The position numbers and the translations under genes are program-made. From an uncultured Candidatus Saccharibacteria bacterium (GTDB lineage: Bacteria > Patescibacteriota > Minisyncoccia > Phycocordibacterales > UBA9973), in NCBI GenBank assembly GCA_964646765.1, contig CAZYIA010000004.1, positions 77,887 to 141,886 of the forward strand: 64,000 bases of DNA. The letters are read 5' to 3'. Shown in pieces: positions 2,343 through 24,087 of this stretch (its first letter is position 1; each line of letters opens with the position of its first letter). The notes under the pieces are model-generated. The model saw nothing but the letters and a program-made list of their open reading frames with translations, ran no database searches and was not told the DNA's origin.

Positions 2343-3479
2343 TCATCGCACGCCCATAAGCGACCGGATGCGGTCAAGGGCTTCGTGTGCGGCTGCGCGC
2401 GCTCCTTGCTGCACACTCGCTGCGGCAATCGCGTCGGGCGCGATCTTTTCCGTGTGCCGCCACGCCCCAAGCCGGCCGGCGCGTACGAGCTTCAGCAACT
2501 CGGCGTGCGGCACGCTCCCCGACGCGCCTACGAGCTCGCCATGGAAACCACTTGACCGCTGCCGGATACGGATCGCCTGCGCCCCTCCGTCGACGCAAAC
2601 CAGCGTGTCGACCAGCGCCTCTAACTGCTGCTCGCCGCGATGCGCGGCCGCCTGTTCAACCGCCGCGGCATCCAGCTCACGTTTCTGCCACGCGTAGTCG
2701 ACGTCCTGCCGGATCAGGTGCTGCAGGAAGCCGACCAGCATGCGTCCTCGCCGCTTCTCGATTGCCGCACGCTTTGCTTCCACGATGTCGGACAGGCGCT
2801 TGTTGGACTTGCCCGCAAGGCGCATGAGCCAGAACACCGTCCAGCATGAAAGCCCTTTCTCGATCAGACAGAAAAGCTCCCGCGGTACCGGCTTGTGCAC
2901 CGCTGGGCGGTTATGGGATTGTCTCTTCGAAGAAGATTGCTCTAACGAGTCTTCCTTAATGAGTGGCTCATTTTGAACCACAGGTGAATGGGTCTGGTCG
3001 AACAATGACTGCGGAGGCCTTGGTGCGATCTCGCGCGCCGCGCTGTCGAAGGTTCGCGCGAGCCCGGCCTGCTCGACGAATGTGGCGGCAAAACGGATCG
3101 GAGTGCCCTGGTAACGTCGGCGGCGCGCGTCGTAGCCCTGATCCTCCCGCACCAGCCAGCCGCGTTCTTCCAGAACCGCGTATGCGCGTTTCACGCTCGA
3201 GCGTGAAACGCCGGCGGCCGTCGCGATGAAGGCCTGGTTGTAGGCCGAGGGATGGATCAGCGCCGGATCCTTGAAGTTGCGCCGCGCCAGCAAGGCAATC
3301 AGGACCTCCTGGGTTGCACGGGTCATCGCGAGGAAGTCGGGCATCTGGAAAAGACGCCTGATCGCCGCCCGCAGGACGGCATCATCCGTCGCGCGCGTGG
3401 TCTCCAGTGTCTCCGAAAACCCATCCAGCGAGAGTTGACGTGGCAATACGGCGTGCACAGACATGCTTTTCTCCAACAC
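2343..3479 (-). CDS. RepA-like winged-HTH DNA-binding protein (putative replication initiator or regulator)
   Basis: HTH segment AFIATAAGVSRSSVKRAYAVLEERGWL. 378 aa. An adjacent AT-rich repeat region lies upstream. Confidence 0.55.
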   Translation of the reverse strand: MLEKSMSVHAVLPRQLSLDGFSETLETTRATDDAVLRAAIRRLFQMPDFLAMTRATQEVLIALLARRNFKDPALIHPSAYNQAFIATAAGVSRSSVKRAYAVLEERGWLVREDQGYDARRRRYQGTPIRFAATFVEQAGLARTFDSAAREIAPRPPQSLFDQTHSPVVQNEPLIKEDSLEQSSSKRQSHNRPAVHKPVPRELFCLIEKGLSCWTVFWLMRLAGKSNKRLSDIVEAKRAAIEKRRGRMLVGFLQHLIRQDVDYAWQKRELDAAAVEQAAAHRGEQQLEALVDTLVCVDGGAQAIRIRQRSSGFHGELVGASGSVPHAELLKLVRAGRLGAWRHTEKIAPDAIAAASVQQGARAAAHEALDRIRSLMGVR

Positions 3480-3539
3480 CCTGTTGGCGACCGTGCACAG
3501 CTCTCATCACCTCTCATCCCTCTATCTGACCTGGCAAAA

Positions 3540-3745
3540 CGAACTTGTTGTGGGCAACCGGAAGAAAATGCTTGACTATTTAATTCTTAACTGGTAAAAA
3601 TTAAAGTAATCACCGGTTGATCTGGTGATTCCTGGCGCCAACCAGGTATCGTGTTTTGTTCGCTTCGTAGTTCGTTTTGCTGGTTCGTTTGCCAGATCAG
3701 TGATGACGAGTTCAATTCGAGTTGACGAGTTGCTGTACACGAAAG
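3540..3745. promoter_or_regulatory. AT-rich origin/regulatory region: palindrome ATCACCGGTTGATCTGGTGAT, three GTTCG(C/T)TT direct repeats spaced ~11 bp, TTGACT-17-TAAAAA promoter-like element
   Basis: Local GC drop. Repeats read directly from the sequence. Confidence 0.4.
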
Positions 3746-3780
3746 CCCGGTTTTAACCGGGCTTTTTTTTCGCCCTCCTG
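3744..3780 (+). terminator. rho-independent terminator
   Basis: aagcccgg-tttta-accgggctt followed by TTTTTTT. Confidence 0.55.
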
Positions 3781-3842
3781 AAACCGTCCGTGCGGGACGG
3801 GCCAAAAAAAACGCACCCCTGTCCAGGTAGTGCGTGTGCTTT

Positions 3843-4229
3843 TCACCTTGCGTAGTTCGCAGTCCTTTGGGCAGCGCGAAATGCCATGCCAAGGACGATG
3901 TTCTGCAGCATCACCGCAGAGCGGTTCGCCGCTTCCTCCCGGGCCCTTTCTTCCAGCCGGCGCCGCAGGCTCGGGGAGAGCGCGGCCGGATCCGCCAATG
4001 CCAGGGCCCGGGAGCGTTTCTCGGCGCGCAGAAGGCGCCAGTGATTGCGCGTGGCGTTCTCCACTTCCGCGCGCTCGACGCGTCCCTGTCGTTCCAGCGA
4101 CGCGAGGATTCCGCCTATCTCATGAGCCGCTAACCCTGTCGTCTCGCGTATCTCGCCGATTGTCGTCGTGCGCCCTGTACACATGCGCATGGCTTCAATT
4201 ACCCGGTTGGTCTTGTTCAGTTTCCCCAT
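3843..4229 (-). CDS. DNA-binding protein (wHTH-like), hypothetical
   Basis: 128 aa. Arg-rich C-terminus, IGEIRETTGLAAHEIGGILASLERQGRV HTH-like segment. Confidence 0.55.
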   Translation of the reverse strand: MGKLNKTNRVIEAMRMCTGRTTTIGEIRETTGLAAHEIGGILASLERQGRVERAEVENATRNHWRLLRAEKRSRALALADPAALSPSLRRRLEERAREEAANRSAVMLQNIVLGMAFRAAQRTANYAR

Positions 4230-4498
4230 CGTCTTGCTCCTCCGTCGAATCGATTCCGTTGGTCAAAAAGTGTCGAGGTCATTTACAGCAGTCCGAGGGT
4301 CCGTGGTCATCGTGCACAACGCACACGGTGACGTGGATGCCTTTATAATCCGTGTTGCGTGGTTGTGCAAGTGCTTTTATTCTTGCTCGCGTTGCCGTGG
4401 ATGTGCTGCGCACATCACCGGTCGGGCAACGGCTGGCTCCAGGGCAAGGTGAGCCTGGTGCCCGCGGTGGGGACCGGCCTTGTTTTAAGGAGCAAGTG

Positions 4499-5900: not shown

Positions 5901-6010
5901 TTTTTTGTGTGCGCGGAAACCCGTACTGACGCTACGGCTGACATGCGGACAACGGACAGCTTTTCGCGGTGAAAAGCGCGTTGACTCTGAGTGCACAAGG
6001 AGGCAACAAC

Positions 6011-7387
6011 ATGGAGATCAAGAAAATCTCCGAGCTGTTCGGCGTGGCCGCGCCGGACACCGCTCAAATCGAAGTGAACGAACCTTCGTTCGAAACGCCG
6101 GAAATAGACTCGGCGTACTCGTTTAACGAGGACCAGATCCGGCGTTTGCAGACCTGGTGGCGGGGCAAGGTGAAAAAGTCGATCTTCCTCACCGGGCCCA
6201 CCGGATGCGGGAAGACCACGCTGATCGAGCAGTTCGCCGCGCGCATCGGAGCCGATTTCTTTCTGGTTCCCTGCCACGGCAAGCTCGACATGGCCGAATT
6301 GCTCGGCAGCAAGGGCATCGCCAAGGATGGTTCGACGTTTTTCGAGCACGGTATCGGGGTGCGCGCCATGCGGCACCAGCGCCCGTGCATCCTGGCCATG
6401 GACGAGATGAACTTCGTCCCACCGGGCTCGATCGGCCTTCTCAACCGGATTACCGAGCTGAAAAGCTTTTCGATTCCGGAAACAGGAGAGGTGATCACGC
6501 CCATGCCCTGGGTCCGCATTGCGGCAACCGGTAACGCGGTCGAACGTGGTGACGATGCAGTTCGTTACCGCGGTACGCAGGCCATGAACGTCGCCCTGCT
6601 GAACCGGTTTCTCGGTATGCGGATGAACTACATGGAGGCGACATCGGAAGCTGCGATGTTGAATACGGCGATTCCTGGCCTGCACCCCAGGCTGATCGAG
6701 CGTCTGGTCGAGCTCGCCAATGAGGTGCGGAACGGATTTGCCCAGGGCACGCTGGAAGTCGTCATGTCCACCCGGACCCTGCTCGACATGGCCCAGGCCT
6801 TGTTCGACCGGAAGGCGCTTGTGGCGAAAAATCCAGTCGAAGAGGTCAACTGGGCGATGGAGTTCTGCCTGACCGACCTCGCGCGGCCGGAAGACCGCGA
6901 TGTGGTTGCACGGCTGGTTCAGGACAAGTTTCACGGCCTGAAGCTGTCCCCGGCAACCGCAACGGCGTCGCCAAAGCCGAAGACGTTCTCGTCGGCGCCT
7001 GTCGACCAGTCGAATGCCGAGATCAGCTTCTGGATTCATCCGAACCGTGGAGCCAAGGGTGCGGCATTCTGGGGATACGTCGAAAGCGACGGCGTATGTC
7101 GGTCCGTCAATGGCAACATTGACGAAGCAGCCCCGCGAGACGGCGAAATTCGCGACATGAAGTGGATCGCTGACCGCGCCAGGGACAAGGAAGCCAAGGG
7201 TTACACCAGGGTGTCAGCCCCTTGTCCGATTCTCCTGCCAACCGGCTCGAGTTCCTCGCAAAGCGAGGTCATCGATGCAGTCAGGGCTGTCGTTGAACTT
7301 GTGAGGGATTACAGGGACAACAAGCCCGTGCAAGTCCCGGGAAACCTGCAGGCCTTCATTGTCGAGGCCATGACAGCGTTCTCCTGA
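6011..7387 (+). CDS. AAA+ ATPase, MoxR/CbbQ/CobS-like (AAA_5) with C-terminal extension
   Basis: Walker A LTGPTGCGKTT, Walker B ILAMDEMNF. RBS AGGAGG. Confidence 0.85.
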   Translation: MEIKKISELFGVAAPDTAQIEVNEPSFETPEIDSAYSFNEDQIRRLQTWWRGKVKKSIFLTGPTGCGKTTLIEQFAARIGADFFLVPCHGKLDMAELLGSKGIAKDGSTFFEHGIGVRAMRHQRPCILAMDEMNFVPPGSIGLLNRITELKSFSIPETGEVITPMPWVRIAATGNAVERGDDAVRYRGTQAMNVALLNRFLGMRMNYMEATSEAAMLNTAIPGLHPRLIERLVELANEVRNGFAQGTLEVVMSTRTLLDMAQALFDRKALVAKNPVEEVNWAMEFCLTDLARPEDRDVVARLVQDKFHGLKLSPATATASPKPKTFSSAPVDQSNAEISFWIHPNRGAKGAAFWGYVESDGVCRSVNGNIDEAAPRDGEIRDMKWIADRARDKEAKGYTRVSAPCPILLPTGSSSSQSEVIDAVRAVVELVRDYRDNKPVQVPGNLQAFIVEAMTAFS

Positions 7388-8093: not shown

Positions 8094-10115
8094 TCAGACC
8101 GCGTCCCGGATGGCCTGCATGAGGCCGTCCGCGAGTTGATCCGTCGTGTTGACTTCGATCCATGACAACCCGAACGAGTCGAGCAGGTCGGTGAATCGTG
8201 CGAGAGACCTTCTCTCGTGTTCATGGCCGGAATTGATCAGCAGAATGGATGTTTCCACGCCGAACGACGCGCAGGTCTGCAAGGCGGCAGCGGTCCGGTC
8301 CGGTTCGGCGGGAAAGCCGTCCGTCACCAGCAACAGCAGCTTGCGTTCCTCGTCTCGTGTCGCCAGCTCCGGTACCACGCGCTCGACCGCCTGCCCCGTG
8401 AGGGTGTTGCCTTCGGTCTTGTGCCAGTGAAGGTCCCTGATACGTCGCCACGCCTCCTCGAAACGCTTGACCGGAGTCAGGTTCTCACCGAAGAAGTGAA
8501 GCGAACACGGCACCTCATGCTTGTCCATCGCCGAGACGGCGGCCCGTGCGGAAGCAACGGCGCCATGCAGCCTGGACACGCCGTCGGCAAGCGCGGTATC
8601 CATCGACGCCGAAACGTCGAGCAGCACCGAGACAGCCGTGCTGACCCCGCTGACATCCTCGTCGATCCTGAAGACGCGTGGTTGCGGGCTCGACTTCACG
8701 CTCGCCAGATGTCTGGATGACAGTTTCCGCCCGGAACGCTCAAGATGCGATCGTTCCTCCAGGCGCGATTCAAGCAGTACCTCCAGGTGCGAGACAACCT
8801 TGAGCTCGATCTGCCGCGTGAGCGCGGCGTAGGGCTCCAGTGCCTGGGCATTCGGGAGTGCGCGTTTTTCGCGGATGGTCCAGCTGTTGTCCGGTGGCGC
8901 CACCTGGTCGATCGCCTCTTGCAGCAGGCTGCCAAGGTCGGTCTCCGGCAGATCGTGTGCACTCAACAGTTGCGCGAGCGCTTTGATCGCCTGATCGAGA
9001 TCGCCCTGTTCGACGCCATCCTGCAAGCTCGAGGCTGCCGAGGGATCCCCGGCGTCACCCTGACTGCCTGACGATGATTCGCTACCCTCAGACGGAGTGC
9101 CGTTGGAGTTCTTCTCGTTGTCATCCTGCTCACCTTGCGACGAACCGGAAGCGCTGGGTCCCTCATCCTGCGGATCCTGGCCGGCATTCTGGTCGTCTCC
9201 CTTCCCGTCGCCGTTCTCGCCCTGCTCTTGCGAACCGGCTTCACCACTCCGGGAAGTGTCGCTCGCGGATTCGTCGTCCTCCTTCCCGTCTTTCGACGAG
9301 CCGGAAGCCTCTTGGCTGTCATCCCGGGAATCCTGGTTGGTGTCTTGCTTGCCTTCCGCTTTTCCCTGGTCGCTACCCTGATCCTGCCCGGCGGTGCCGG
9401 AACTGCCATCGCTGGAATCGTCTTGCCCGGCTTGCGCCTGCTGATTCTCCATCGACTGCAACTCGCGCTTGAGGAACTCTTCCAGCGCAATCGAACAATC
9501 CACGACATCCTTCGTGCAACGGCTACGAGCGAGCCCGTCGCGTGCGATGTCCAGAAAGCCCTTGACCACCGGCATGCCGACCATGGTGCACAACATCGAC
9601 ATCCGGGCCCGGTACATCGGCTCGAGGATCTTCTGCCCCAGGTATTGCCCACGCACCCAACCGAGCAGCATGTTGGGAAACAGCTCCTCGACCGGCTCAT
9701 CGGGAGAAGGCATGTCGAACAGCCCTCTTTTGACCATGACCTCCAGCGCAGCCTCGATCCTGACGGCCATACCCGGGTAGTCGCGTTTTTCGCATGCTTC
9801 CATCCTGCCGTCCTCGAGGGAACGGTAGAAGGACAGCGCGAGCGGTCGTTTGAGAATGGTCGTCTTGGCAAGAAAGTCCGTGTAGCGGACGTGTCCGAAC
9901 TCGTGCGTACAGGTGCCGTCGAGCAGAACAACTGCGTCCGGTTCGTCGGAAAACGCCGCGAAGTTGATGGTCACCGTCTTGCCGTCGGTGCATCCGGTCG
10001 AGATGTTGCCTGAACGGATGTTTATCCCCAGCCGCCGGCCAACGATCTCACCGTACATCCTGAGATTGGCGACCCGGCGGGTCACCGTGCCAGACTTACG
10101 AAATGTTGCCTTCAT
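8094..10115 (-). CDS. von Willebrand factor A (vWA, MIDAS) protein with long poly-acidic/Ser-Gly low-complexity spacer; CobT-like partner of the AAA+ ATPase
   Basis: MIDAS motif DVSASM...T...D at the C-terminus. ~150-aa D/E/S/G-rich region. Start MKATFRK is preceded by GAGGAG. Confidence 0.8.
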   Translation of the reverse strand: MKATFRKSGTVTRRVANLRMYGEIVGRRLGINIRSGNISTGCTDGKTVTINFAAFSDEPDAVVLLDGTCTHEFGHVRYTDFLAKTTILKRPLALSFYRSLEDGRMEACEKRDYPGMAVRIEAALEVMVKRGLFDMPSPDEPVEELFPNMLLGWVRGQYLGQKILEPMYRARMSMLCTMVGMPVVKGFLDIARDGLARSRCTKDVVDCSIALEEFLKRELQSMENQQAQAGQDDSSDGSSGTAGQDQGSDQGKAEGKQDTNQDSRDDSQEASGSSKDGKEDDESASDTSRSGEAGSQEQGENGDGKGDDQNAGQDPQDEGPSASGSSQGEQDDNEKNSNGTPSEGSESSSGSQGDAGDPSAASSLQDGVEQGDLDQAIKALAQLLSAHDLPETDLGSLLQEAIDQVAPPDNSWTIREKRALPNAQALEPYAALTRQIELKVVSHLEVLLESRLEERSHLERSGRKLSSRHLASVKSSPQPRVFRIDEDVSGVSTAVSVLLDVSASMDTALADGVSRLHGAVASARAAVSAMDKHEVPCSLHFFGENLTPVKRFEEAWRRIRDLHWHKTEGNTLTGQAVERVVPELATRDEERKLLLLVTDGFPAEPDRTAAALQTCASFGVETSILLINSGHEHERRSLARFTDLLDSFGLSWIEVNTTDQLADGLMQAIRDAV

Positions 10116-10445
10116 GGTTCGCTCCTCGGCTCGAGAGGCCTCCACTGCGGAGAGCCATTCCTCTTTGCATAGGGGCAAGCCGTTGCAAGGTAGCGGCTAT
10201 GGTCGCGACGTCTGTTTTGGAACATCCGCGACCAAAATTGAGGGCAATGGTGCGAAGCTATCGGGTCAGCGCGGTCAACCCGGCGAGCAAAAGGACGGTT
10301 GCAACGATCGCACCGAGTGCCAGTGCGCTGCCCAGCAACGCCGACTTCAGCGGCGGCGGTGCGCTTCCTTCGATTTTCGTCGATGCTTTCATCGGTTCTG
10401 CTCCTGATTGCGGAGCAGAAACTCTCGATCAAAACCGATCGCTGA

Positions 10446-10892
10446 TCAATTTCTTATAGCGTCGATGAATCGCAGCACCTTGGCCGCACGCCTGCCTTCC
10501 TGGTCCGCGACGGCAGACAGCAGCGCGCCGACCAGGCCTTCGGCCAACAACTCGCGTTCTTCGGATGTGGATAGATGGACCGGAGCCCGATCGATCACTA
10601 CGGGGTTGTTGCGGCGCCCCATGCACTCGCTGAGCGTCATCACGCACCACTTTCGCGCCGCACGAGCGACCCAGTCAGGGACCGATTCACGGCCAAGAAT
10701 GAAATCCGAGACGCGACGCGCGGCCGATCTCGAAGAACCGGAAAGCACGGGTCGGCCCGCGATCGCCTCGATCTCCGCGGCCACAAGCAGATTTGTGCCT
10801 GTCTCGGATCCGATCAGGTACCGCATGAGGCCAACAGTATTGAGGACGGGCGCGTCTTCGATGGGGCGGCCAGGCAGATTACTTTTCCTCAA
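10446..10892 (-). CDS. hypothetical protein, paralog 2 of a duplicated pair
   Basis: N-terminus GRPIEDAPVLNTVGLMRYLIG aligns with the upstream gene's GRPLLDHPVRNVIGLMLHLLG. Confidence 0.6.
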   Translation of the reverse strand: MRKSNLPGRPIEDAPVLNTVGLMRYLIGSETGTNLLVAAEIEAIAGRPVLSGSSRSAARRVSDFILGRESVPDWVARAARKWCVMTLSECMGRRNNPVVIDRAPVHLSTSEERELLAEGLVGALLSAVADQEGRRAAKVLRFIDAIRN

Positions 10893-11378
10893 TCAGGGAT
10901 TCTCGCTCTGTTTCAGGATCGTTTCTATGAGCAGCAGCGTTGACCGCAGCTTTCGCTCGGCCTCGGCTGCCGCGTGACGCAGCACCAGGTCTACCAGACC
11001 CGTTGCCAGTAGACGTGCGGCCGTAGCGGACGAGACATCGAGAACATGATCGTCCACCGTGATGCCAACACGCTTGCGCTTCAGTGCCGCCGCGATGTGT
11101 CGCACGCACCATTCGTGAGCGGCTTCCTCGGCCCAGATCGGGATCGCCTTGCCGCCCGATGCAAACTCACCGATGCGTTTTTGTGTTTCGCGCGTGCGCG
11201 CGACACCATCCAGCTTCGGGACGATCGTTCGGCCCGAGAGGGCCTCCAGCTCTTCTGCCAGTTTCCCGCGAGATTCCATGCCGCCCAGCAAGTGCAGCAT
11301 GAGTCCGATGACATTCCGTACGGGATGATCGAGGAGCGGCCGTCCGATCCCCTTGTTCGCGCCTCGAGGCTTGGCCAT
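10893..11378 (-). CDS. hypothetical protein, paralog 1 of a duplicated pair
   Basis: Start MAKPRGANKG overlaps the Macro gene stop (TGATG). Paralogous to 10446..10892. Confidence 0.55.
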   Translation of the reverse strand: MAKPRGANKGIGRPLLDHPVRNVIGLMLHLLGGMESRGKLAEELEALSGRTIVPKLDGVARTRETQKRIGEFASGGKAIPIWAEEAAHEWCVRHIAAALKRKRVGITVDDHVLDVSSATAARLLATGLVDLVLRHAAAEAERKLRSTLLLIETILKQSENP

Positions 11379-11836
11379 CACCGGTTCTTCTCCGGGGGGA
11401 ACAGCCATACGTCCACGGTTCCGGACGGAATCTCGGCAAAGGCCTGCTCGATGCGCTGTTTGACGATATGCCACGAGAGTCCGCCCAGACCGCAGCCGAG
11501 CGCCGGGATCGCGATGGAGTCGATGGCGTTCATTCGCACCCACTCAACGAGTACCGGCAGACCGGCTTCGATGTACGCCATCTTTGACGGACTGCGCCAG
11601 AAGATCTTGGTCGGAAAATGAACAATGCGACGGCCGTCCTCGAGCCAGAAGTCGTGCAGCAATCCCGGCTTGAGTTCCTTGCGTGCGCAGGCCTGGCGGT
11701 ACGACTCGTAAGCGGCGGGAAAGCGTTGCCTGAACTCCAGCGCCAGACCTTTTCCCGCGATGCCTTGCCCGTTCACCGGGTTGACCAGCGCGCGGACTGG
11801 GGCGTCGAAGATGCTGCCTTGGCGTTCTTCAATCAT
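11378..11836 (-). CDS. Macro domain protein (ADP-ribose / O-acetyl-ADP-ribose processing family)
   Basis: GIAGKGLALEF...AIPALGCGLGGLSW matches the macro-domain glycine-rich loops. 152 aa. Confidence 0.8.
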   Translation of the reverse strand: MIEERQGSIFDAPVRALVNPVNGQGIAGKGLALEFRQRFPAAYESYRQACARKELKPGLLHDFWLEDGRRIVHFPTKIFWRSPSKMAYIEAGLPVLVEWVRMNAIDSIAIPALGCGLGGLSWHIVKQRIEQAFAEIPSGTVDVWLFPPEKNR

Positions 11837-12104
11837 TCGGGTTCATTGCCTCGTTGACGCGCATCAACAGCATGGCGCAGGCCAGGATCGCCATTGCTGC
11901 GGCAAATGCCGAGACGTAGGGGTGTCCGTCGAAGCTGGATCCGAAAGCGACGATGATCTCATGCGCCGACGCCCCGGTTGCGAGGTGACCGACAAGTAGC
12001 AAAAGGCCCATGAACACCGCCAGCGCGCCTACCGGCAGGAGGGCGTCAATCAGTTTGTAAGGCACGTCTGTTTTCCAGAAAATCGCGCAGCCGTACGCCC
12101 GCAT
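11829..12104 (-). CDS. small membrane protein (2 predicted TM)
   Basis: Hydrophobic segments LLPVGALAVFMGLLLLVGHL and AFAAAMAILACAMLLM. Its stop abuts the Macro gene start. Start uncertain (12104 or 12011). Confidence 0.45.
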   Translation of the reverse strand: MRAYGCAIFWKTDVPYKLIDALLPVGALAVFMGLLLLVGHLATGASAHEIIVAFGSSFDGHPYVSAFAAAMAILACAMLLMRVNEAMNPND

Positions 12105-12891
12105 CGGCGCGCGCGAAGTTGAACACCGGAATGCCCCAGCGGCTTGCGAGGGCGATCGCCTGCCCTGTCCCGCCCGTGGCAGGCCCGCGCTCCGCTTCGT
12201 TCTCCGCTCCGTCCGGGGTCCAGGCAATGACGAAATCGCTGGGTGTGCGGCAATCGGCACCGAGGATCTGGTGGGTGTTGCGCGCCATCAGCTTGCGGAC
12301 CGCCGGCGACAGCTTGTTCCAGGCCGGATGCAGACAGGCGGCCACCTCCATGGCTTCCTGTGTCGGCTCAACGAAAACCGAACGGCGACCATTGAACCCC
12401 GGCCACGGCAGAAAAATTTCCTTTTGCGCGCCGGCACCTTGCTCGAATGCTGTATCCGCGCCGCCCGCACCGCCGGAACGCAGCGTGTATCCCATGCGGG
12501 CAAGCCGGACAGCGGCTTCGGTCATGCGGGCCAACTGGTCAGGCGGTGTCTTGCGCGAACCGATGCCGGCGTAAGTCATGCTGATTTCCTTCGGGGGCAG
12601 CCCGGTCTCTGCCAGGCGCCGCCAGGCATGCTCTACCTCGGTTCCGTGACAGCGCAACGGAGCGCACGAACAAACAAGGCGGGAATCGGCCTTCAGACCC
12701 AGAAGCGCGGTCAACATTGCGGGGTCGCCTTGCGACACCCTGTAGGCCATACGATCGGCGTACTGCTCGCACACCTGGTCGCGGTCACCGTGCTCGCCGA
12801 TGACGTAGGGATTGCCGAATACCGTCCCGCGGCCGATGTAGATTGAACCGGGTGGCCAGTCGTTGAGGTTCTTGCGGTTGAGGATCTGCAT
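12046..12891 (-). CDS. fusion protein: N-terminal DUF4326-like domain (GNPY...CSC) + C-terminal DprA/Smf-like SLOG Rossmann domain
   Basis: N-terminus GSIYIGRGTVFGNPYVIG...CSCAPLRCHG. C-terminus GIGSRKTP...SGGAGGADTAFEQGA...HQILG...GGTGQAIALASRWGIPVFNF resembles DprA SGLARGIDxxAH...AVP. Confidence 0.65.
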   Translation of the reverse strand: MQILNRKNLNDWPPGSIYIGRGTVFGNPYVIGEHGDRDQVCEQYADRMAYRVSQGDPAMLTALLGLKADSRLVCSCAPLRCHGTEVEHAWRRLAETGLPPKEISMTYAGIGSRKTPPDQLARMTEAAVRLARMGYTLRSGGAGGADTAFEQGAGAQKEIFLPWPGFNGRRSVFVEPTQEAMEVAACLHPAWNKLSPAVRKLMARNTHQILGADCRTPSDFVIAWTPDGAENEAERGPATGGTGQAIALASRWGIPVFNFARADAGVRLRDFLENRRALQTD

Positions 12892-12904
12892 GCCGCCCGC
12901 CGGT

Positions 12905-13402
12905 TCAGGTTCCACTCAAGACAAATGCCTCTTCTGCAGGAATGAACGCGGCGAGCATCGAGCCCAGCAAGGTGTGCACGTAATTGCTGTACGGCAGGTT
13001 CAGCCTCGCGAGTCTGGCACGCAAAGCCGTGAACGAACCTGTTTCGTGGCCCGATTCCACAATCGTCGCCAGATCCCGGCCTGTCCATGCACAAAATCGC
13101 CCTTCGCGATCAAGACCAAACCAGTGCAGCGCGTCGAAACTAAGCTGTGCCGGCTCGCACGCGGCCACGCCGTACGGGATGAACGAGGCGTGCGTCACGG
13201 CGCATCCTTCGTTGGCGGGGTGATCCGCAATCAGGCCCCACGACCGGGTCTCTTTTGCGAGCATCACACGCACTCCCTGCACCGGTCGCCCGGAATCACC
13301 CCGTATCGCGTTGGACAGGACTACCGCATACGTTGGCCCGGCGAGGAACATGGGCGCAGACAAGACAAGCAAGCGTGTCTCCGTTATTTCGTGCGCCGGC
13401 AT
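12905..13402 (-). CDS. hypothetical protein (165 aa) at the head of the Macro operon
   Basis: Internal Met of the 12905..13957 ORF. Ends 13 nt before the next start. Confidence 0.4.
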   Translation of the reverse strand: MPAHEITETRLLVLSAPMFLAGPTYAVVLSNAIRGDSGRPVQGVRVMLAKETRSWGLIADHPANEGCAVTHASFIPYGVAACEPAQLSFDALHWFGLDREGRFCAWTGRDLATIVESGHETGSFTALRARLARLNLPYSNYVHTLLGSMLAAFIPAEEAFVLSGT

Positions 13403-13584
13403 GAGGCATCGACGCTCATGCTGCTGTCTTTCGTCATCTGTTTCAGGAACATGGTTTTGGCCTGCTCGCAGCGCTCCAGGCTGGAGAATTCCTGCCGGCG
13501 TTCTATTGGCGGCTGTGGCTCCGCAAGCGGAGTCCCGCCAACCAGAGTTATGGTCAGCATCAAAACATACACGGCATTCATCAT
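13384..13584 (-). CDS. small secreted protein (signal peptide), low GC
   Basis: N-terminus MMNAVYVLMLTITLVGG. Lies in a local AT-rich patch. Confidence 0.35.
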   Translation of the reverse strand: MMNAVYVLMLTITLVGGTPLAEPQPPIERRQEFSSLERCEQAKTMFLKQMTKDSSMSVDASCRRTK

Positions 13585-13679
13585 CGACCTTCTTTCTCAC
13601 GCTACAGACAATTTCCATATTTTGGAAAATTCCATGAAAACATCCAGTTCTTATACGGCCGCAGCGAAGCATCACCGCG

Positions 13680-14735
13680 CTAACCTCGCCCTTTCCTCTC
13701 CGCTGCCCGCCGCTTGTTTTCCGCACTGCAGATGCGACAGGTGACGATGCGCCGCCCGTCCTCCGTGAAGCGCTCCTGGTACGGATGACCTTTCGGGCAA
13801 TGCGTCTTGTGCCGCACGACCTGCTTGTGAGCGGGATCGAGCTTGCGCAGTCGCTTGCTGATCCCCATGCGATCGGTGCCCAGTTCGGCGGCGATTTCGT
13901 CGATGGTCTTGCCAGCGTGCCGTAGTGCAAGCACGGCAGCGCTGTATCGCGCACCAAGCATGTTCATTTCGGCCTGTTTCGCGAACGGCAACGCCTCGAC
14001 GGTTTCGCTGAACGAGCGCTGGCGCTCGGCGTCGGCCGCCTTCCATGCGCGGAACGTGCTCATGGAAGGCATGCCGGGTCGCGCGCAGGCCTCGGTGGGC
14101 GTCGCGGATTCTGCGCGCATTGTGTCGATCACGCGCCAGAAGTCGGCGTCTGTGAACTGGCGCTGGCGGGCACTGGTGCTCACCCGCTTGTACTCGGTTT
14201 CCGCCGTGCGCGATTTACGCGAGCGAGCCAGTTGAGCCTGTGCCGGGTTGCCCATGAGTCGCCAGTTGCCAGCCTCGATGCGCTCTTCCAGCAATTCACG
14301 ATGCTTCGCTTTCGTCTCCTCGCACGCGAGCCCAAAGGTACGCGGCAGCCGGTACTGGTCGCGGTATTCGTCAAGGTCCACCTTATGCAGGGTGGCGAGA
14401 TGAATTCCGAGTGCCCGATAGGCGTTGCCGCAAATCAGACAGGTGTGCCCGTTCGGTGAGCCCTTGAGGTAGCGGTCGATTTGAGCCTTGGTCTCGAACG
14501 GGCCGATTTTTGGGAAACCTTCGCGGACAATCCGCCGTGCCAGGCGCCGTTTCAGGTTCTTGGCTTCCTGTGCCGTCGCAGCCCCCGAGATCGCGCGCTC
14601 CAGATCGCCCTGGTGTACGCGCATTTCCTGGCCCATTTGGCGAAGACGGTCCCAGAACGGGTTCCCTTCGTGGCGCTCGGCTTGCGATGCAATAGAAGGT
14701 GCCCACTGGTTGCCGGTGATGAATGGTTTGGACAT
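13680..14735 (-). CDS. MucR/Ros-family zinc-finger transcriptional regulator with a second C-terminal Cys4 finger
   Basis: HTCLICGNAYRALGIHLATLHKVDLDEYRDQYRLP matches the MucR C2H2-like finger. C-terminus HCPKGH...CRIC. Confidence 0.7.
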   Translation of the reverse strand: MSKPFITGNQWAPSIASQAERHEGNPFWDRLRQMGQEMRVHQGDLERAISGAATAQEAKNLKRRLARRIVREGFPKIGPFETKAQIDRYLKGSPNGHTCLICGNAYRALGIHLATLHKVDLDEYRDQYRLPRTFGLACEETKAKHRELLEERIEAGNWRLMGNPAQAQLARSRKSRTAETEYKRVSTSARQRQFTDADFWRVIDTMRAESATPTEACARPGMPSMSTFRAWKAADAERQRSFSETVEALPFAKQAEMNMLGARYSAAVLALRHAGKTIDEIAAELGTDRMGISKRLRKLDPAHKQVVRHKTHCPKGHPYQERFTEDGRRIVTCRICSAENKRRAAERKGRG

Positions 14736-15023
14736 TCGATAGGTGTCTATTCAGCGTTAGGGCGCATGTCGGCACGCACGCACTTTCGGGTTTCGCAAAA
14801 CGGCAAGTCTTCGCGTTCGCATGGAGCGAGAGATGTGCCGTGCGGGTATCTGATTCCCTTACACGCTTGCATTCCCGGCCCCGCGTGCCCGTGCTTGCAT
14901 CGGGTTTGGCCGTCGCCGAGTTGCTCCAATCCGCTGCACCATTTCTTCGTGTCCATCGTTCGCTCCGTTCGGGCATTACGCCCTAACAATTCATTCAAGC
15001 CGACGCCTACGGCGCGGCTTAAT

Positions 15024-18877: not shown

Positions 18878-19684
18878 TCACACAAGCGCGTAAGCGCCAA
18901 ACGGACGATCTTCAGGCGCGTCGGCAACCCGCAGGTCGACCAGGCCGATGGACCGCTTGGGAGCAGCGATCACCCCGGTTTTTGCCATCGTCTCGACCAT
19001 GGTGAGGCAGCCTTCTTTCTTCAGGCCGCACTGCCCGAATACCGCGCCCGAATCGATGGCATAGACATTTGCCAGCCGGGTCGCGCCCGTCCATTGCGGC
19101 GTGTGACCGACAAACAAGCGTCCGACACCCCCCACTCCGCTCGTGTCCTGCCTGCGAATCCGATCCCGGCCCCACAAGCAGGTGTGGATGGTTTCTGTGT
19201 CGCCCGCCTCAAGGCGAAGAAGAAACTCGCCCCATCGCATGCCGGTCGGCACGTCCGCGTGAATCAGGCCGACTGAGCCGCGTGCGGTGTCCACCTCGAT
19301 GGCAAGGGGTAGTTTGCGGATTGCGTCGAGGATCTCCATGCGGCGATTCTCCGGCACGTCCAGCCACCACTCCAAGCCGTTATAGCGGCTGGCCACATCC
19401 AGGACTGCTGGATCGGGCACGCCGGCGCTGTAGAGTTCAAGCAGCATGTCCTCGTGATTCCCGCGCACCGCATGCACAAACGACTGGGCAAGAAATGCCG
19501 CGCAGCGATGCGAGCCTGGACCGCGGTCGATGAGGTCGCCGACACTGAAGAGGCGGTCGATCTGCGGGTCGAACCCGGCCTCTTTCATCGCGTCGAGCAC
19601 CAGGTCGAACGCGCCGTGGATGTCGCCGACGACGAAATCGCGACCCACGGTGTTCCGGGAGAATCGCTGGACCGTTTGCATCAT
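18878..19684 (-). CDS. Ser/Thr-phosphatase-fold metallophosphoesterase (PPP / ApaH-like)
   Basis: Motifs GDIHG, GDLIDRG, GNHE. AGGAAGG RBS. Start overlaps the ThiF gene stop. Confidence 0.85.
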   Translation of the reverse strand: MMQTVQRFSRNTVGRDFVVGDIHGAFDLVLDAMKEAGFDPQIDRLFSVGDLIDRGPGSHRCAAFLAQSFVHAVRGNHEDMLLELYSAGVPDPAVLDVASRYNGLEWWLDVPENRRMEILDAIRKLPLAIEVDTARGSVGLIHADVPTGMRWGEFLLRLEAGDTETIHTCLWGRDRIRRQDTSGVGGVGRLFVGHTPQWTGATRLANVYAIDSGAVFGQCGLKKEGCLTMVETMAKTGVIAAPKRSIGLVDLRVADAPEDRPFGAYALV

Positions 19685-20484
19685 GCCACCTTCCTTTGCG
19701 GACGCGCCTGTTTCACGGGTATCTGGTAGCCGAACCGCGCCCAGGCCTCCGGATCCACCGGCAATGGCGTCGCACGCCCCGTCGCGAGGTTGACGAAGAT
19801 GCCGTGGTGGTCGATTTTGCCGTGACGGAACAGCCTCCAGAGGAGATTCAGCCCCCAATCCGACACAGCCCTGTTGATAAAAAGATCCTGGCGCCCCAGA
19901 GCCTCTACCATTGAGCAGCTCGGCGTGTTGTCCTCCGGGATCGTGGGATCGAGGATGTCGGGGAACAGGTCGACAACAGTGGGCAGGCGGTCCGGACTGT
20001 CTTCCGGTCGCGTCCAGGTAGGCAAGGTTTGTCCAAGAATCGCCTGTCCCGAAGTTTCCTGGTTGCCAAGGTCGAGCCATAGCGCGTCGCAACTTTGCAG
20101 CGCCGCATGGATGTCGCGTCGTGCGGCCCGGTTGTCCACCGCCCCGATGACGAGGTCGGCGGAAACCCGCGTGTCTGCCGACAGGCGCTTGAACTCGGCA
20201 GTCCAGTCCAGCCCGTATGCCACGTTGATCCGATGCGTCAGCACGATAGCCTTGCTCGACCCCACGTCGGCCGGGTAGAAGGCCTGCCTTCCGACGTTCG
20301 AGTCGGACACAAGGTCGAAATCCATGGTGGTGACATCGAGGCCGCCTGGATGCCCCAACGCACGCATGGCGCGGTCGAGTTCGGCAAGCCCCGTCAGCAT
20401 CCGGGAACCGTTGCCACCGGCCCCGACCAACAGCACCTTTACGCTGCGTGAAAGCAGGTGACGCGGAATCGCAAATTCAGTCAT
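19681..20484 (-). CDS. PRTRC system protein B, ThiF/MoeB E1-like
   Basis: VLLVGAGGNGS Rossmann motif. GGAGGAGG RBS. ATGA coupling with the JAB gene. Confidence 0.85.
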   Translation of the reverse strand: MTEFAIPRHLLSRSVKVLLVGAGGNGSRMLTGLAELDRAMRALGHPGGLDVTTMDFDLVSDSNVGRQAFYPADVGSSKAIVLTHRINVAYGLDWTAEFKRLSADTRVSADLVIGAVDNRAARRDIHAALQSCDALWLDLGNQETSGQAILGQTLPTWTRPEDSPDRLPTVVDLFPDILDPTIPEDNTPSCSMVEALGRQDLFINRAVSDWGLNLLWRLFRHGKIDHHGIFVNLATGRATPLPVDPEAWARFGYQIPVKQARPQRKVA

Positions 20485-21113
20485 GCCTCCTCCATCAAGC
20501 CGCCGAGATCGACCGGCAGGTAGATGCCGAGTGCACACAATCGCGTCGCCAGTGCGGGGTTCTCGCCTTGCTCGTCGATCTTGCCCACGACAAGTGCGAT
20601 CTTCACCTCGCCACGATCATCCTGGTCATCCGTGCCGGAGAAGCCCGCCGCGTGCTGGCCATGCGAATGCATGTCCACCACCAGATGCTCCTGTTCGCCC
20701 AGACGCGGACGTTCGTAGTTGATATGGCTGCCGGAGGCGCTGATCTCGACGAAGCGCTCGTACCGCCAGGCATTCGTCGCCGCATTCCAGATGATGCCGC
20801 CGGCGATCTCCGTGTGGGGTGTTGCTGCCGCGTCGCGCAAGAAGTCGATCAGCGGCTGCCATTTGATCTTGCCGCAGCCGAGTTCGACGTGATGCCCGAG
20901 CTTGCCGTAGGGCATTGCCACACGGTCCTGTGTGGCCAGCGGAACCCGGACATACAGCCAGGGCCGATGGATCTCGATCCAGAGGCCGTCCTCGGCGGCG
21001 AGGAAGCGATGCCCCGGCGTGGTCAGCGGGACGAACGCCTCGTGGCGCGGCACCATGACGGTCGGCGTCACCGTTTGCAGCGTACGGTCGATCGGATTCA
21101 AGCTGCCGTCCAT
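20481..21113 (-). CDS. PRTRC system protein A, JAB/MPN metalloprotease
   Basis: JAMM motif HLVVDMHSHGQHAAGFSGTDDQDD. Confidence 0.8.
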   Translation of the reverse strand: MDGSLNPIDRTLQTVTPTVMVPRHEAFVPLTTPGHRFLAAEDGLWIEIHRPWLYVRVPLATQDRVAMPYGKLGHHVELGCGKIKWQPLIDFLRDAAATPHTEIAGGIIWNAATNAWRYERFVEISASGSHINYERPRLGEQEHLVVDMHSHGQHAAGFSGTDDQDDRGEVKIALVVGKIDEQGENPALATRLCALGIYLPVDLGGLMEEA

Positions 21114-21114
21114 T

Positions 21115-21858
21115 TCAGCCCCTCCCCTGCTTCTTGAGAGCGAGCACCAGATCGCCCAGGGTGAGATCGGCGGGCGCAAGATGCTTCGTTGGAAAGGTCT
21201 TGAACTTGCCGTCCGCGATCTCCTTCCACAGCCCGCCGACGCCTTTCCGGTGCCGCGTAAGCCGTTTGCCATGGTCGTTCGGATGGGTGAAGGCCGAGTC
21301 GAAGAACAGCGATTCCCATTGCGGGATCGCCTGCAGGCCCGTGCGATCCGGCCGCTGCGCGCTCCCCTGACATAGACGACAGTCCGACCAGGTGTTGTAG
21401 AACGGCGCCATCGAAAGCGGGGTGCCGGGTTCCGGGCGCTCCGATTTGGTGAGCGCGAACACGTAGAGATCGCCCCCCTTCACGGCGAACACCAGTGCCG
21501 GCAGGTGTGTGCTGATTGCCCGCTTGCCGATGGGGTCCGCCCTGTCGGTGTCGAAGAACAGGGTGCGCGCCCCCGCTTCTCGCCACCACACCATCCAGCC
21601 CGCGCCTACCGCAAGCGCATGGGAAGGAAGGTAGTCGATAGCCGAGTCGGGAACGAGTTTCTCGTTGAGCGCGATCAGGGCTTCCCGCGTCACCGGCGTA
21701 CCCGCGAGCAGAAATGGCGCACCGGCGTCGTCCGTGCCAACGCTATGGACGGTCGCAAACGGCTTGCCCATGCCGTTGGCCGGCTCGTAAACGAGCAGTC
21801 CGGTGGCAAGCCGCAGCGGGCTTTCCGTGAAACCGGAAGATACATCAATTCGATTCAT
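21115..21858 (-). CDS. PRTRC system protein (D-like)
   Basis: Position in the cassette. GAGGAGG RBS. Confidence 0.55.
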   Translation of the reverse strand: MNRIDVSSGFTESPLRLATGLLVYEPANGMGKPFATVHSVGTDDAGAPFLLAGTPVTREALIALNEKLVPDSAIDYLPSHALAVGAGWMVWWREAGARTLFFDTDRADPIGKRAISTHLPALVFAVKGGDLYVFALTKSERPEPGTPLSMAPFYNTWSDCRLCQGSAQRPDRTGLQAIPQWESLFFDSAFTHPNDHGKRLTRHRKGVGGLWKEIADGKFKTFPTKHLAPADLTLGDLVLALKKQGRG

Positions 21859-22939
21859 GTCCGACCTCCTCGCCGATCAGGCCCACGAGCGTGTCGAGCT
21901 TGTGCGCCAGGGCGAACCATTGTTTCTTGTGTGCGAGCCAACCCTTGAAACCATCGGGGCTGGCTTCGAAAATCTCGATGCCGAAGGAGTCCGAATACGC
22001 CTCGCCTCCCTGCATGACGTTCTGCTCGTAATCGTCAAGGATGCGCACCATCGGGTCATGATCCGAGGTGTCCCACCAGAGCAGCGCACCATGGCCAATG
22101 AAGTCGAGATCGTTCAGTCCTTCGTAGGCACCGAACGCCCGGAACTTCCGTCCAGCGCGTCGTAGCGCGAGGCAAGTGGCTGCGACCTGGCGGGCGCATC
22201 CGGATAAGCCCGTGTTCCGGGTGATGGCCTGTAGAGCACGCACAGACAGTGCCTTGCGGGGTATCCATGCCCACTCGGGTGCATAGTCGTCGAATTGCGA
22301 GCGCCTTACGATGTAGTCACCCGCTTCCTCCTCGCCGCCGATCTCCTCGATGACCTCCGTCTCATCGGGCTCACCGTACCAATAGAACATGGACGCAAGG
22401 TAGAAGGCGCGCGCCGGATCCATCACGTCAACCGTGCGGATCGCCGCTTCGCGGAGATCGTGAAGCGCGGTCCTGCCAAGGCCGGGACATTCGCATTCCA
22501 GCGCGTTCAGCACACGGCCAACAGTAAAGCTGCGCGAGGACGCCCCCCACGTCGTCACCGCGAGATGCGGGCGATCCGGATCCAGGCCGCGGGCTTCCAA
22601 AAGAGCGGCCCAGTCCCACGCGAAGTCCTGCTCCCCTTCGGCAAGCTGGATCGACAGAGAACAGGCGAGACGGTCGAACCGCCCGTTTCGGGTAGCCCAG
22701 TCCGACAGCGCGGCAAGGACGACGGCCTCCGCGTTGTAGGCGGACTTCCAGTGATGCGGTTTCACCAGACCCGCGTCGTCGCACCATAGCGCCAGGCTGG
22801 CCCATTCCGCCCGCTCGGGACGCAGAGAGATCCTGGTCGGCACACGGTCGAGTTTCGGCAAACCGGCATACACCGACGCGACCTGTCTGCGAGCCGGCCG
22901 CAGGGTTGCCCGTTGAGTGGTTTCGAGCCGGGCGTTCAT
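21845..22939 (-). CDS. PRTRC system protein (F-like)
   Basis: Position in the cassette. 364 aa. Confidence 0.55.
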   Translation of the reverse strand: MNARLETTQRATLRPARRQVASVYAGLPKLDRVPTRISLRPERAEWASLALWCDDAGLVKPHHWKSAYNAEAVVLAALSDWATRNGRFDRLACSLSIQLAEGEQDFAWDWAALLEARGLDPDRPHLAVTTWGASSRSFTVGRVLNALECECPGLGRTALHDLREAAIRTVDVMDPARAFYLASMFYWYGEPDETEVIEEIGGEEEAGDYIVRRSQFDDYAPEWAWIPRKALSVRALQAITRNTGLSGCARQVAATCLALRRAGRKFRAFGAYEGLNDLDFIGHGALLWWDTSDHDPMVRILDDYEQNVMQGGEAYSDSFGIEIFEASPDGFKGWLAHKKQWFALAHKLDTLVGLIGEEVGHESN

Positions 22940-23137
22940 GGCAGCAGGGGTAGCGCCGTCCAGTGCGGCACGGTCGGAGTTCCGTTTCGGTGTGCCGCAA
23001 GCACATCATGGATCAGCTTGCTGGAATCCAGGTTGGCGGCGTGATTTGTCGGGCTTGCGCCGCCCATCCGCGTCGCCGCCATGCTCTCCATCGCCGCCCG
23101 CCATTGCGCTCGGTTCAACCGCATGTATGGCGTCCGG

Positions 23138-23617
23138 TCAAGCATGGCAGCGCCCGGCTGCCGAGTTGCGGAGACTGTCCCGCGCCTCGATCAGCACCCG
23201 CATCGACATGGTGTCGCAGTCCCTCGCGTTGAGGCGAATGTCGATGGCTTCGAGTGCCTGGTCAAGCATCTTTTCGTTGGTCCGGCTCTCCGTCAGGAAG
23301 GCGCGCAGGCAGAGACCGCTCCTCTCGTTGCAGTCGGGGAGTAGGCAGCCAATGCAGATCCGCTCAGACAACTCGCTTGCCTGCCGGACACAGGCTTCGG
23401 TGGTCGAGATGGCCATCCCTTTCATCCCCGCGGCTCGCCGGAAGCTGTAGGTCATCTTGCCATCGCGCGCCTCGGGGCCTTCTACGGTGGCCGTCGCCAG
23501 TTCGGGATACGTGGCGCTGTACACGTCCCGCACCTGGTCGGGCGAGAGGTTGGGGTTGGGGTCGGGCAGCGTCACCCCTGCATAGGAAAAGCTGCGGACA
23601 AGTGCGGTCACTTTCAT
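23138..23617 (-). CDS. PRTRC system protein C (ubiquitin-like beta-grasp) continuing into a ~90-aa Cys-rich C-terminal extension
   Basis: N-terminal 70 aa MKVTALVRSFSYAGVTLPDPNPNLSPDQVRDVYSATYPELA...FRRAAGMKG is typical of PRTRC-C. The ORF continues with no stop. Confidence 0.55.
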   Translation of the reverse strand: MKVTALVRSFSYAGVTLPDPNPNLSPDQVRDVYSATYPELATATVEGPEARDGKMTYSFRRAAGMKGMAISTTEACVRQASELSERICIGCLLPDCNERSGLCLRAFLTESRTNEKMLDQALEAIDIRLNARDCDTMSMRVLIEARDSLRNSAAGRCHA

Positions 23618-23627
23618 GGCGACGGCC

Positions 23628-24068
23628 TCACTCGAACAGGTTTTCCGCCGATGCGGAGTTGGATTCGTCGGCTTCGCTGGCCGCCGTCGCTGCCGGCTCG
23701 GTGACCTTCACCGACACCGGTGTCGCAGCCGGGGTGGCGGCGGACTTGCCTGCCGCGCCCTTCACTGCTTTCGCCGCCTTGGACGTGGCGTCCTTCTTGG
23801 CCGCGTCGATCACTGCCTGGGTGTCCTTGAGGGCGTCGGCCAGCGATTTCCGGCTGACCTCGTAGCTGCCAAGGGCATCGGTGAAACCGGAGTCCAGTTC
23901 CTCCGGGGTGGCCTCGAATTGCAGTGGCTGGTGCAAGGCGGGGTTGGGGTTGTCGCCGACCGCTTTCGGCACGACGGTCACAATAAGCGTGCCCGCCTCA
24001 CGGTTGGCGCTGAAAGTCATCGCCAGGGTGGCGTCCTGCGCGATCTCGAAAATTTTCTGAAACAGCAT
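23628..24068 (-). CDS. PRTRC system protein E
   Basis: AAGGAG RBS. Ala/Lys-rich C-terminal half. Position next to the ParB-like gene. Confidence 0.6.
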   Translation of the reverse strand: MLFQKIFEIAQDATLAMTFSANREAGTLIVTVVPKAVGDNPNPALHQPLQFEATPEELDSGFTDALGSYEVSRKSLADALKDTQAVIDAAKKDATSKAAKAVKGAAGKSAATPAATPVSVKVTEPAATAASEADESNSASAENLFE

Positions 24069-24087
24069 GGGTATCTCCTTCTTGGGT

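Follow-up and report, generated by a model that had tools for sequence, protein, structure and literature searches.

The 64,000-nucleotide stretch analysed here (contig CAZYIA010000004.1 of an uncultured Candidatus Saccharibacteria bacterium; hereafter the window) carries on its minus strand six closely packed genes, g1 to g6 (10446-13402), which include a gene for a stand-alone macrodomain of the DarG2 type (g4) and one for a fusion of a DUF4326 domain to a SLOG domain (g2). We read this gene set as a counter-defence or establishment cassette of a mobile element, built around the erasing of ADP-ribose, and give this reading a probability of about 0.55. It is supported by the DarG-type identity of g4, its conserved catalytic residues, its similarity to the phage enzyme AdfM and its orphan status; by relatives in which DUF4326, SLOG and Macro are fused on one chain, by a SLOG-Macro fusion, by a recurrent trio of genes and by a NADAR gene beside the fusion gene at one locus (L093); and by the distribution of the family over phages and plasmids, a published prediction for the same domains and the anti-Avs activity of the phage protein ORF83. 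An earlier sequence-only reading had proposed that the genes act on ADP-ribose-derived signals or ADP-ribosylated ssDNA, possibly as a counter-defence against DarT or Thoeris. The homology of g4 to DarG2 and AdfM bears out the general direction, an erasing or processing of ADP-ribose in the conflict between element and host, especially against DarT. The same reading held that the combination was not a described system. This had to be abandoned, since a survey of DNA viruses (PMC9503650) already gives the domain combination, and AdfM and AdfN are experimentally known orphan DarG-like counter-defence enzymes. Thus the domain combination is already described, and what is found here is a plasmid-borne member of a partly characterised kind.

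The macrodomain protein g4 (11378-11836, minus strand, 152 aa) is an orphan of the DarG2 type and a predicted ADP-ribosyl-thymidine glycohydrolase acting on single-stranded DNA (ssDNA). Its assignment to Macro, made before from the letters, was upheld by a hidden Markov model (HMM) search, in which Pfam PF01661 was matched with an E-value of 3.4e-12 (46.8 bits, cutoff 22) over positions 1-116 of 118, and it was sharpened to the DarG2 type by the NCBIfam model antitoxin_DarG (1.1e-51, 176 bits, below the equivalog cutoff of 250) and the PADLOC model for DarG (3.2e-56). The closest solved structures were the DarG macrodomains of M. tuberculosis (PDB 5m3i, 9e-35) and Thermus aquaticus (PDB 5m31, 4e-34). 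Of the 338 positions of the DarG model g4 spans 1-150 only, which, together with the score below the equivalog cutoff, indicates that the C-terminal, toxin-binding half of DarG is missing. A search for DarT was negative in g1 to g6 and the small upstream reading frame g0 (HMM libraries), and likewise among the 78 open reading frames (ORFs) of the window (PADLOC, E<=1e-5). A complete DarTG system was therefore rejected, there being neither DarT nor the C-terminal domain of DarG. The best 120 homologues of g4 were almost all stand-alone proteins of 142-196 aa, which places g4 within a large clade of orphan DarG-like macrodomains.

In an alignment of g4 with the T. aquaticus and M. tuberculosis DarG macrodomains, AdfM and six homologues, N22 and F74-P75-T76-K77 were invariant, and the lysine of this FPTK motif, K77, is the counterpart of the catalytic lysine of DarG. 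Asn22 is equivalent to N23 of AdfM, the mutation of which (N23A) reduces activity (PMC13309987). AdfM, the gp104 protein of the chimallivirus PhiKZ, is a stand-alone macrodomain which has been shown to free DNA of the ADP-ribose added by DarT2 and to relieve the toxicity of DarT2 (PMC13309987). It is 34% identical to g4 (E 1e-27), and g4 is likewise a stand-alone DarG2-type macrodomain of ~150 aa on a mobile element, with the catalytic Asn and the FPTK Lys kept. However, AdfM belongs to a phage and is described as a single protein, whereas g4, the activity of which is predicted, belongs to a plasmid-type replicon, is translationally coupled to the DUF4326-SLOG gene and in relatives is fused to DUF4326-SLOG. 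With the DarG of DarTG2 systems g4 shares the macrodomain type (1e-34 to 1e-51 over the full length of g4) and the catalytic residues, but it measures 152 as against about 340 aa, is devoid of the C-terminal DarT-binding domain and has no DarT within the 64 kb. By homology to these tested proteins, g4 would strip ADP-ribose off thymidines in ssDNA. Among other phage factors directed against DarT, AdfN is a NADAR enzyme which counteracts DarT1 and is thus also an orphan eraser used in counter-defence (PMC11825919), while AdfB is different, being an inhibitor which binds DarT (PMC11481870).

The fusion protein g2 (minus strand, ATG 12891 to 12046, 281 aa) consists of an N-terminal DUF4326 domain (about aa 1-100, 12592-12891) and a C-terminal Rossmann domain of the SLOG superfamily (aa 104-281, 12049-12582). 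The likeness to DUF4326 noticed earlier proved sound, as g2 matched Pfam PF14216 at 7e-17 (62.3 bits, cutoff 25) and this part of it matched phrog_464 at 6e-21. In a 32-sequence alignment the invariant residues of the domain were R21, G26-N27-P28, R37 and a C74-x-C76...C81-H82 loop, which in the AlphaFold2 model (predicted local distance difference score >90 for this domain) sits between strand 71-74 and helix 83-96. By literature prediction DUF4326 is classed in the rhodanese-phosphatase clade (PMC9503650). Fold searches with full-length g2 gave only Rossmann-type or unrelated folds and no rhodanese or phosphatase, none of the matches being attributable to DUF4326, and no search was made with the domain alone.

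The SLOG half bears the motifs YAGIGSRxTP, SGGAxGADxAFE, R204-N205, T225-x-D227 and TGGTGQAI, of which GSR113, SGGAxGAD, R204-N205, T225-x-D227 and TGGTGQ were invariant in the same alignment; the invariant residues of g2 thus mark two candidate sites, one in DUF4326 and one in SLOG. This half had been called DprA(SLOG)-like, and the two parts of that name fared differently. The Rossmannoid fold with glycine-rich loops after strands 1 and 3, by which the superfamily is recognised, was confirmed structurally for the C-terminal domain, and its 178 residues matched phrog_768, annotated 'DprA-like', at 1.2e-55. Membership of the DprA/Smf family, in contrast, was rejected, as g2 reached 16.3 of the 29.6 bits needed for PF02481 and 13.1 of the 191 bits needed for TIGR00732, and a profile search against PDB returned DprA chains at E 0.08-0.1. 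In fold searches with the g2 model DprA scored 14.3 and 13.5, as compared with 13.2 for the Moco carrier protein (MCP), 12.7 for TM1055, 12.7 and 11.6 for LOG enzymes, 11.5 for ShosA, 10.9 for YpsA and 10.1 for the SLOG domain of ThsA; on these model-based scores DprA is simply the nearest of several nearly equal fold neighbours, with MCP, LOG and YpsA about as close. LOG phosphoribohydrolases carry the motif PGGxGTxxE with its catalytic Glu. g2 was also rejected as a LOG enzyme, since it and its relatives have TGGTGQAI[A/D], with Gln for Thr and Ala or Asp for Glu, across 32 homologues. The family is large, a protein search having given 2773 matches at E <= 0.001. Some homologues (P0073 and P0049 among them) have between DUF4326 and SLOG an insert of about 110 aa which matches the NCBIfam model 'A1S_2505_Nterm'. 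By eye the insert has macro-like IPTK and GCGLAG motifs, but BLASTP against g4 reached no better than E 0.029 and there was no Pfam match, so that its kinship to macrodomains is tentative.

For these domains a role is suggested by two sources. The survey by Iyer, Burroughs and Aravind (2022, PMC9503650) describes associations and fusions of DUF4326, SLOG, Macro and NADAR in DNA viruses and predicts that they process ADP-ribose (ADPr) derivatives, DUF4326 acting on terminal phosphates of ADPr products as a viral countermeasure to immunity based on NAD+ and ADPr; it also gives RES enzymes as makers of ADPr-1''-phosphate. The viral set described there has the same domains, fusions and predicted role as the genes in the window. 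Here, in contrast, the set is plasmid-borne and comprises a separate DarG-type Macro gene, a protein with two transmembrane (TM) segments and the narrow, helical g5/g6 family, the last two without mention in the passages cited, and the earlier work is purely computational. The second source concerns ORF83, a DprA/LOG-like SLOG protein of a phage which evades type III Avs and is reported to be without the residues for DprA dimerisation and RecA binding (EVADES preprint 10.1101/2025.06.06.658234). ORF83 resembles g2 in being a SLOG protein, stand-alone in its case, annotated as DprA/Smf, in having LOG and DprA as structural neighbours and in having homologues, in giant viruses of amoebae, which carry DUF4326. 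Its proposed site R-N...T-x-D recalls R204-N205...T225-x-D227 of g2, a likeness of motifs which goes with a shared PHROG-type annotation and makes homology a possibility. It differs in that DUF4326 is C-terminal in the viral homologues and N-terminal in g2.

That the activities of g2 and g4 belong together is suggested by the way in which their genes are combined elsewhere. Two relatives of g2, P0007 (429 aa, identity to g2 about 75%) and P0032 (425 aa, about 66%), have DUF4326, SLOG and a DarG-type macrodomain on one chain, the macro parts matching the DarG model at 3e-58 and 5e-54, and an Erythrobacter plasmid encodes a SLOG-Macro fusion. As separate genes, the fusion gene, the Macro gene and a g5/g6-family gene follow one another in this order at further loci (L005/L009, L090 and L096), and the order is repeated across loci of 53-80% identity. 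At L096 the fusion gene, the Macro gene and a g6-like gene are directly adjacent, and in Thiobacillus denitrificans and related contigs the series is interrupted by a small 2-TM gene and by one of 84 aa. Starting from Macro homologues of 56-73% identity, a DUF4326 gene was found within 4 kb (<=4 kb) at 3 of the 4 loci reached. The sequence-only reading had treated all six genes as a unit. In the neighbourhood comparison the fusion gene, the Macro gene and one g5/g6-family gene recurred; the full six-gene set was confined to near-identical contigs, g1 and the second paralogue being clade-specific, and a megablast search for near-identical DNA in plasmids gave no match. Judged by gene order, the linked core is thus the fusion, the macrodomain and one g5/g6-family protein, not all six. 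The expectation that the homologues co-occur was likewise borne out for the functional link, in the fusions and the recurrent trio, and failed at the many fusion loci at which Macro is absent.

Two neighbourhoods deserve mention beside these. NADAR enzymes are the other known type of DNA ADP-ribose eraser. On a betaproteobacterial contig (L093/L094, 4170-4610, minus strand) a 146-aa NADAR gene divergently adjoins a 56% identical DUF4326-SLOG gene, a neighbourhood which parallels the pairing with Macro at g2-g4. L095 has at 3208-4459 an orphan DarG-like Macro gene (73% identity) just 3' of an SSB gene, with an HU gene near; no DUF4326 gene was found there within 4 kb.

If the cassette serves the erasing of ADP-ribose, it could be envisaged to work as follows. 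g4 would hydrolyse the ADP-ribose which DarT2-type toxins attach to ssDNA thymidines, as its homology suggests, and would thereby restore replication of the element's DNA in hosts with DarTG2; it would do so catalytically, without the toxin-binding domain of DarG. The SLOG domain of g2 may bind a ligand of the adenine-nucleotide or ADP-ribose type, or possibly a nucleotide within ssDNA, a step which we put forward with less confidence, and its DUF4326 domain would, following the literature prediction, be a rhodanese-phosphatase-like phosphoesterase. g2 would share the pathway of g4, either in processing ADPr-derived products or immune signals or in directing the eraser to its substrate. The duplicated g5/g6 protein and g3 would be clade-specific accessories, possibly a regulator or an adaptor, and from the sequence the genes would be expressed together by way of their overlapping stop and start codons. 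It is literature prediction and context which suggest the role of g2 and an advantage conferred by the cassette where the host has DarTG2 or another NAD-based defence. A bolder version of this scheme, which we hold to be unlikely, makes the triad of DUF4326-SLOG, DarG-type macrodomain and g5/g6-family protein a dedicated complex for erasing ADP-ribose from plasmid ssDNA, in which the DprA-like SLOG domain would load on ssDNA, the macrodomain would strip the DarT adducts and DUF4326 would remove the phosphate or ribose-phosphate remnant. Should it be true, plasmids would have their first anti-DarT system and DUF4326 its first biochemical role.

Several observations weigh against the reading as an eraser cassette. 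At ~13 of the 20 distinct fusion loci no DarG-like Macro gene lies nearby; these Macro-free loci (L010-L016, L024, L034, L091, L092) include examples from Acidithiobacillus and methanotrophs, and two have 70% identical fusion proteins. The absence of Macro near most distant homologues of the fusion makes the pairing facultative, and it could reflect co-residence in cargo islands. The position of the catalytic Glu of LOG is not conserved in g2 (TGGTGQAIA), no relaxase or type IV secretion system (T4SS) family was present among the families listed in Pfam scans of the window ORFs (25 of 49 in one scan), and in the literature searched no paper connected a DarG-like macrodomain with leading regions or with the transfer of plasmids. 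The activities of both g2 domains and of g4 are predicted, and a restriction of plasmids by DarTG is putative.

These points leave room for other explanations. The facultative pairing would be accounted for if the genes were independent cargo, packed by chance into a variable accessory island and without a shared pathway: fusion neighbourhoods are highly variable, Macro is found at only ~7 of 20 distinct loci, and the surroundings consist of many small unrelated ORFs. We consider this improbable, however, as three arrangements (DUF4326-SLOG-Macro, SLOG-Macro and DUF4326 beside NADAR) join the same domains, the order of fusion, Macro and paralogue is kept across the 53-80% identical loci, start and stop codons overlap, and the association has been found independently in viruses (PMC9503650). 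A second explanation accepts the joint action and relocates it to DNA: a DprA-like SLOG domain would bind incoming or replicating plasmid ssDNA and, with the Macro eraser, protect or repair it, without processing small molecules. It is rather unlikely, although it deserves somewhat more credit than chance packing. Scores of 16.3 against 29.6 and 13 against 191 bits fall below the DprA thresholds, g2 is devoid of the flanking SAM and winged-helix domains, and the SLOG domains of MCP, LOG, YpsA and ThsA score nearly as well; the related ORF83 is reported without DprA dimerisation and RecA-binding residues, and the company of DUF4326 and NADAR is more in keeping with nucleotide chemistry.

Macrodomains of the DarG type classically act as antitoxins, and the cassette could itself be a toxin-antitoxin (TA) or defence module in which one of g1, g3, g5 and g6 would be an unrecognised toxin that forms an ADP-ribose adduct, with g4 as its antitoxin. 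The tight coupling to small proteins of unassigned function, the confinement of the g5/g6 family to the module context and the presence on the replicon of other conflict genes (RES-Xre, the PRTRC cassette and a Shedu-like match) would agree with this. Nevertheless, four HMM libraries gave no signature of an ADP-ribosyltransferase, DarT, RES or other toxin in g0-g6, the fold of g5 matched no enzyme, g4 is without the toxin-binding C-terminal domain, the Macro homologues are overwhelmingly orphans in varied neighbourhoods and the triple-fusion relatives need no partner gene; a TA module is therefore improbable here. Even less probable is a housekeeping or self-detoxifying function, in which the proteins would clear ADPr-phosphate or other products of NAD breakdown, such as those which the replicon's own RES toxin makes. 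A RES-Xre pair is indeed present on the replicon at about 39.6-40.6 kb, and according to PMC9503650 RES makes ADPr-1''-phosphate and DUF4326 is predicted to remove terminal phosphates on ADPr. The pair, however, lies 27 kb off and on the opposite strand, g4 belongs to the DNA-specific DarG type and not to the Poa1p/MacroD type, and it is predominantly in phages, also at the ends of their genomes, and in plasmids that the family is found.

The gene set itself was confirmed at 10446-13402 on the minus strand, with the six co-directional genes, their order and their overlapping or abutting stop and start codons as the sequence-only reading had given them. The same set was called in at least 24 independent metagenome contigs, which indicates real genes rather than chance ORFs. 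g1 (12905-13402, 165 aa, function unassigned) is followed by a 13-nt spacer before g2, or by an 11-nt overlap if a GTG start of g2 is used; this alternative start, GTG 12915, gives a 289-aa form picked by gene callers, and ATG 12891 is favoured since nearly all homologues start with MQILNR. g2 overlaps by 20 nt with g3 (11829-12065, GTG 12065, 78 aa), a small 2-TM membrane protein for which a longer form from ATG 12104 is possible, and which overlaps both the end of g2 and the start of g4. The g3/g4 junction is ATGATTGA, with an 8-nt overlap, and the g4/g5 junction TGATG, with a 1-nt overlap. g5 (10893-11378, 161 aa), the first of the two paralogues, is helical and has a very small family which is restricted to the module, and its TGA directly abuts the TTG start (10892) of g6 (10446-10892, 148 aa), the second. 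The TTG start is backed by a conserved N-terminal GRPxxD...N..GLM motif common to g5 and family members.

The set does not stand alone. A 66-aa ORF with a hydrophobic N-terminus, g0 (13384-13584, minus strand), which was absent from the sequence-only reading, overlaps with its stop the start of g1 by 19 nt; it was called as a gene of 65-66 aa in independent contigs and had 100% tblastn matches in L001-L004 only, and the HMM library searches gave no family match for it. Directly upstream of g0, across a 95-nt gap, lies a gene for a 351-aa Ros/MucR-domain protein (13680-14735, minus strand), an arrangement repeated in L001-L004, and this protein is a possible regulator of the downstream genes. 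At the other end a 44-aa single-TM ORF (10258-10392, minus strand), 53 nt 3' of g6, may be a trailing member of the transcription unit; it was called in L001-L003, and L096 has a gene of 43 aa at this place, although tblastn gave no significant similarity there. All of this is embedded in a ~17-kb co-directional minus-strand array reaching from ParB and the PRTRC cassette down to the CobT-VWA gene. A promoter and terminator scan of 10100-14900 gave no sigma-70-like promoter, and terminator-like sites at chance level, so that operon boundaries are provisional. 'Six-gene operon' therefore describes the packing of the genes, and the transcription unit is putative.

As mentioned above, the accessory genes are conserved unevenly. 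g1 had no Pfam, NCBIfam, PHROG or PADLOC match; in Thiobacillus-type loci its slot upstream of the fusion is filled by a non-homologous gene of 201/213 aa, and at L096 there is one 34% match, 3 kb upstream of the fusion. g1 was thus rejected as a conserved module partner, the slot not being kept in relatives. g3 has hydrophobic segments at residues 3-34 and 48-71 by hydropathy. Its slot holds a 184-aa gene at L090, the N-terminus of which is 49% identical to g3, and a non-homologous 74-aa 2-TM protein at L005; it is missing in L096 and in the triple-fusion proteins. The suggestion that g5 and g6 are paralogues was correct, as they share 33% identity (E 7e-23). A word-indexed homologue search with g5 gave a single protein, 97% identical, and an exhaustive HMMER search of 1.84 billion proteins found seven representatives of the family. 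The single paralogue of L096 is closest to g6, at 53%. The model of g5 is confidently helical and gave no meaningful fold match.

The window has a backbone of the plasmid type, with RepA_C, ParA, an actin-like segregation protein, KfrA, SSB, topoisomerase III, ParB and a tyrosine recombinase. The sequence-only reading had placed the genes on a conjugative element, and this was not upheld, as the families listed in the window scans held no T4SS or relaxase; transfer genes may sit outside the 64-kb window, and 'conjugative element', a place in a leading region and 'acts in recipient' are assumptions. Beyond this replicon, the SLOG domain of the fusion was found in 1609 of 50,697 phage records (about 3%) and on 41 plasmids, among small genes without annotation. 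Phages with homologues of the g2 type include N4-like, T4-like and PAK_P-like ones. Pseudomonas phage Zuri has the full fusion close to one end of its genome, and N4 has DUF4326 alone in a similar place.

Upstream of the Ros/MucR gene, and all on the same strand, Metallophos and HD_4 genes separate g0-g6 from a PRTRC-type cassette (19681-25797, minus strand; Prok_Ub, alpha-hel2, Prok-E2_D, DUF2016/JAB and ThiF) with a 569-aa ParB upstream of it. The downstream end of the set is flanked by a CobT-like VWA protein (8094-10178, minus strand), with an acidic and very long linker in which Ser, Asp, Glu and Gly abound, and by a CobS-like AAA_5/CbbQ ATPase (5969-7387, plus strand); the pair also adjoins the cassette in L001-L003, and a CobT-like gene is present in L096 and L005. 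Further off, 39595-40645 (plus strand) encodes an Xre/MbcA/ParS-type antitoxin and a RES toxin (Pfam RES 6.5e-33; Xre_MbcA_ParS_C 1.8e-13), an NAD+-targeting TA pair, the assignment of the two genes within it being read from the ORFs and not from a per-gene scan. A 643-aa DEAD/RecG-like helicase (52873-54804, plus strand) is probably the ORF behind a PADLOC match to DpdF (6e-97), and no other dpd genes were detected in the 64-kb window. PADLOC also returned, for the 78 ORFs, Shedu SduA (DUF4263) at 1.7e-9 and 'SNc+LTD' at 1.9e-11. An insertion-sequence-type transposase (DUF772 + DDE) lies at 60880-62400, and over the final 2 kb of the window the GC content, until then about 0.60, falls to 0.49, suggesting an insertion or an element boundary.

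As regards the biology of such elements, orphan DarG-like and NADAR erasers are proven counter-defences of phages, and plasmids, like phages, may need to erase the marks made by DarT. DarT acts on ssDNA, and an eraser carried by a plasmid would suggest that the spread of plasmids, too, is limited by ADP-ribosylation of DNA. The DUF4326-SLOG family is very large and of predicted function; for its activity the operon and its triple-fusion relatives offer a compact, coupled context in which the substrate of the partner can be guessed.

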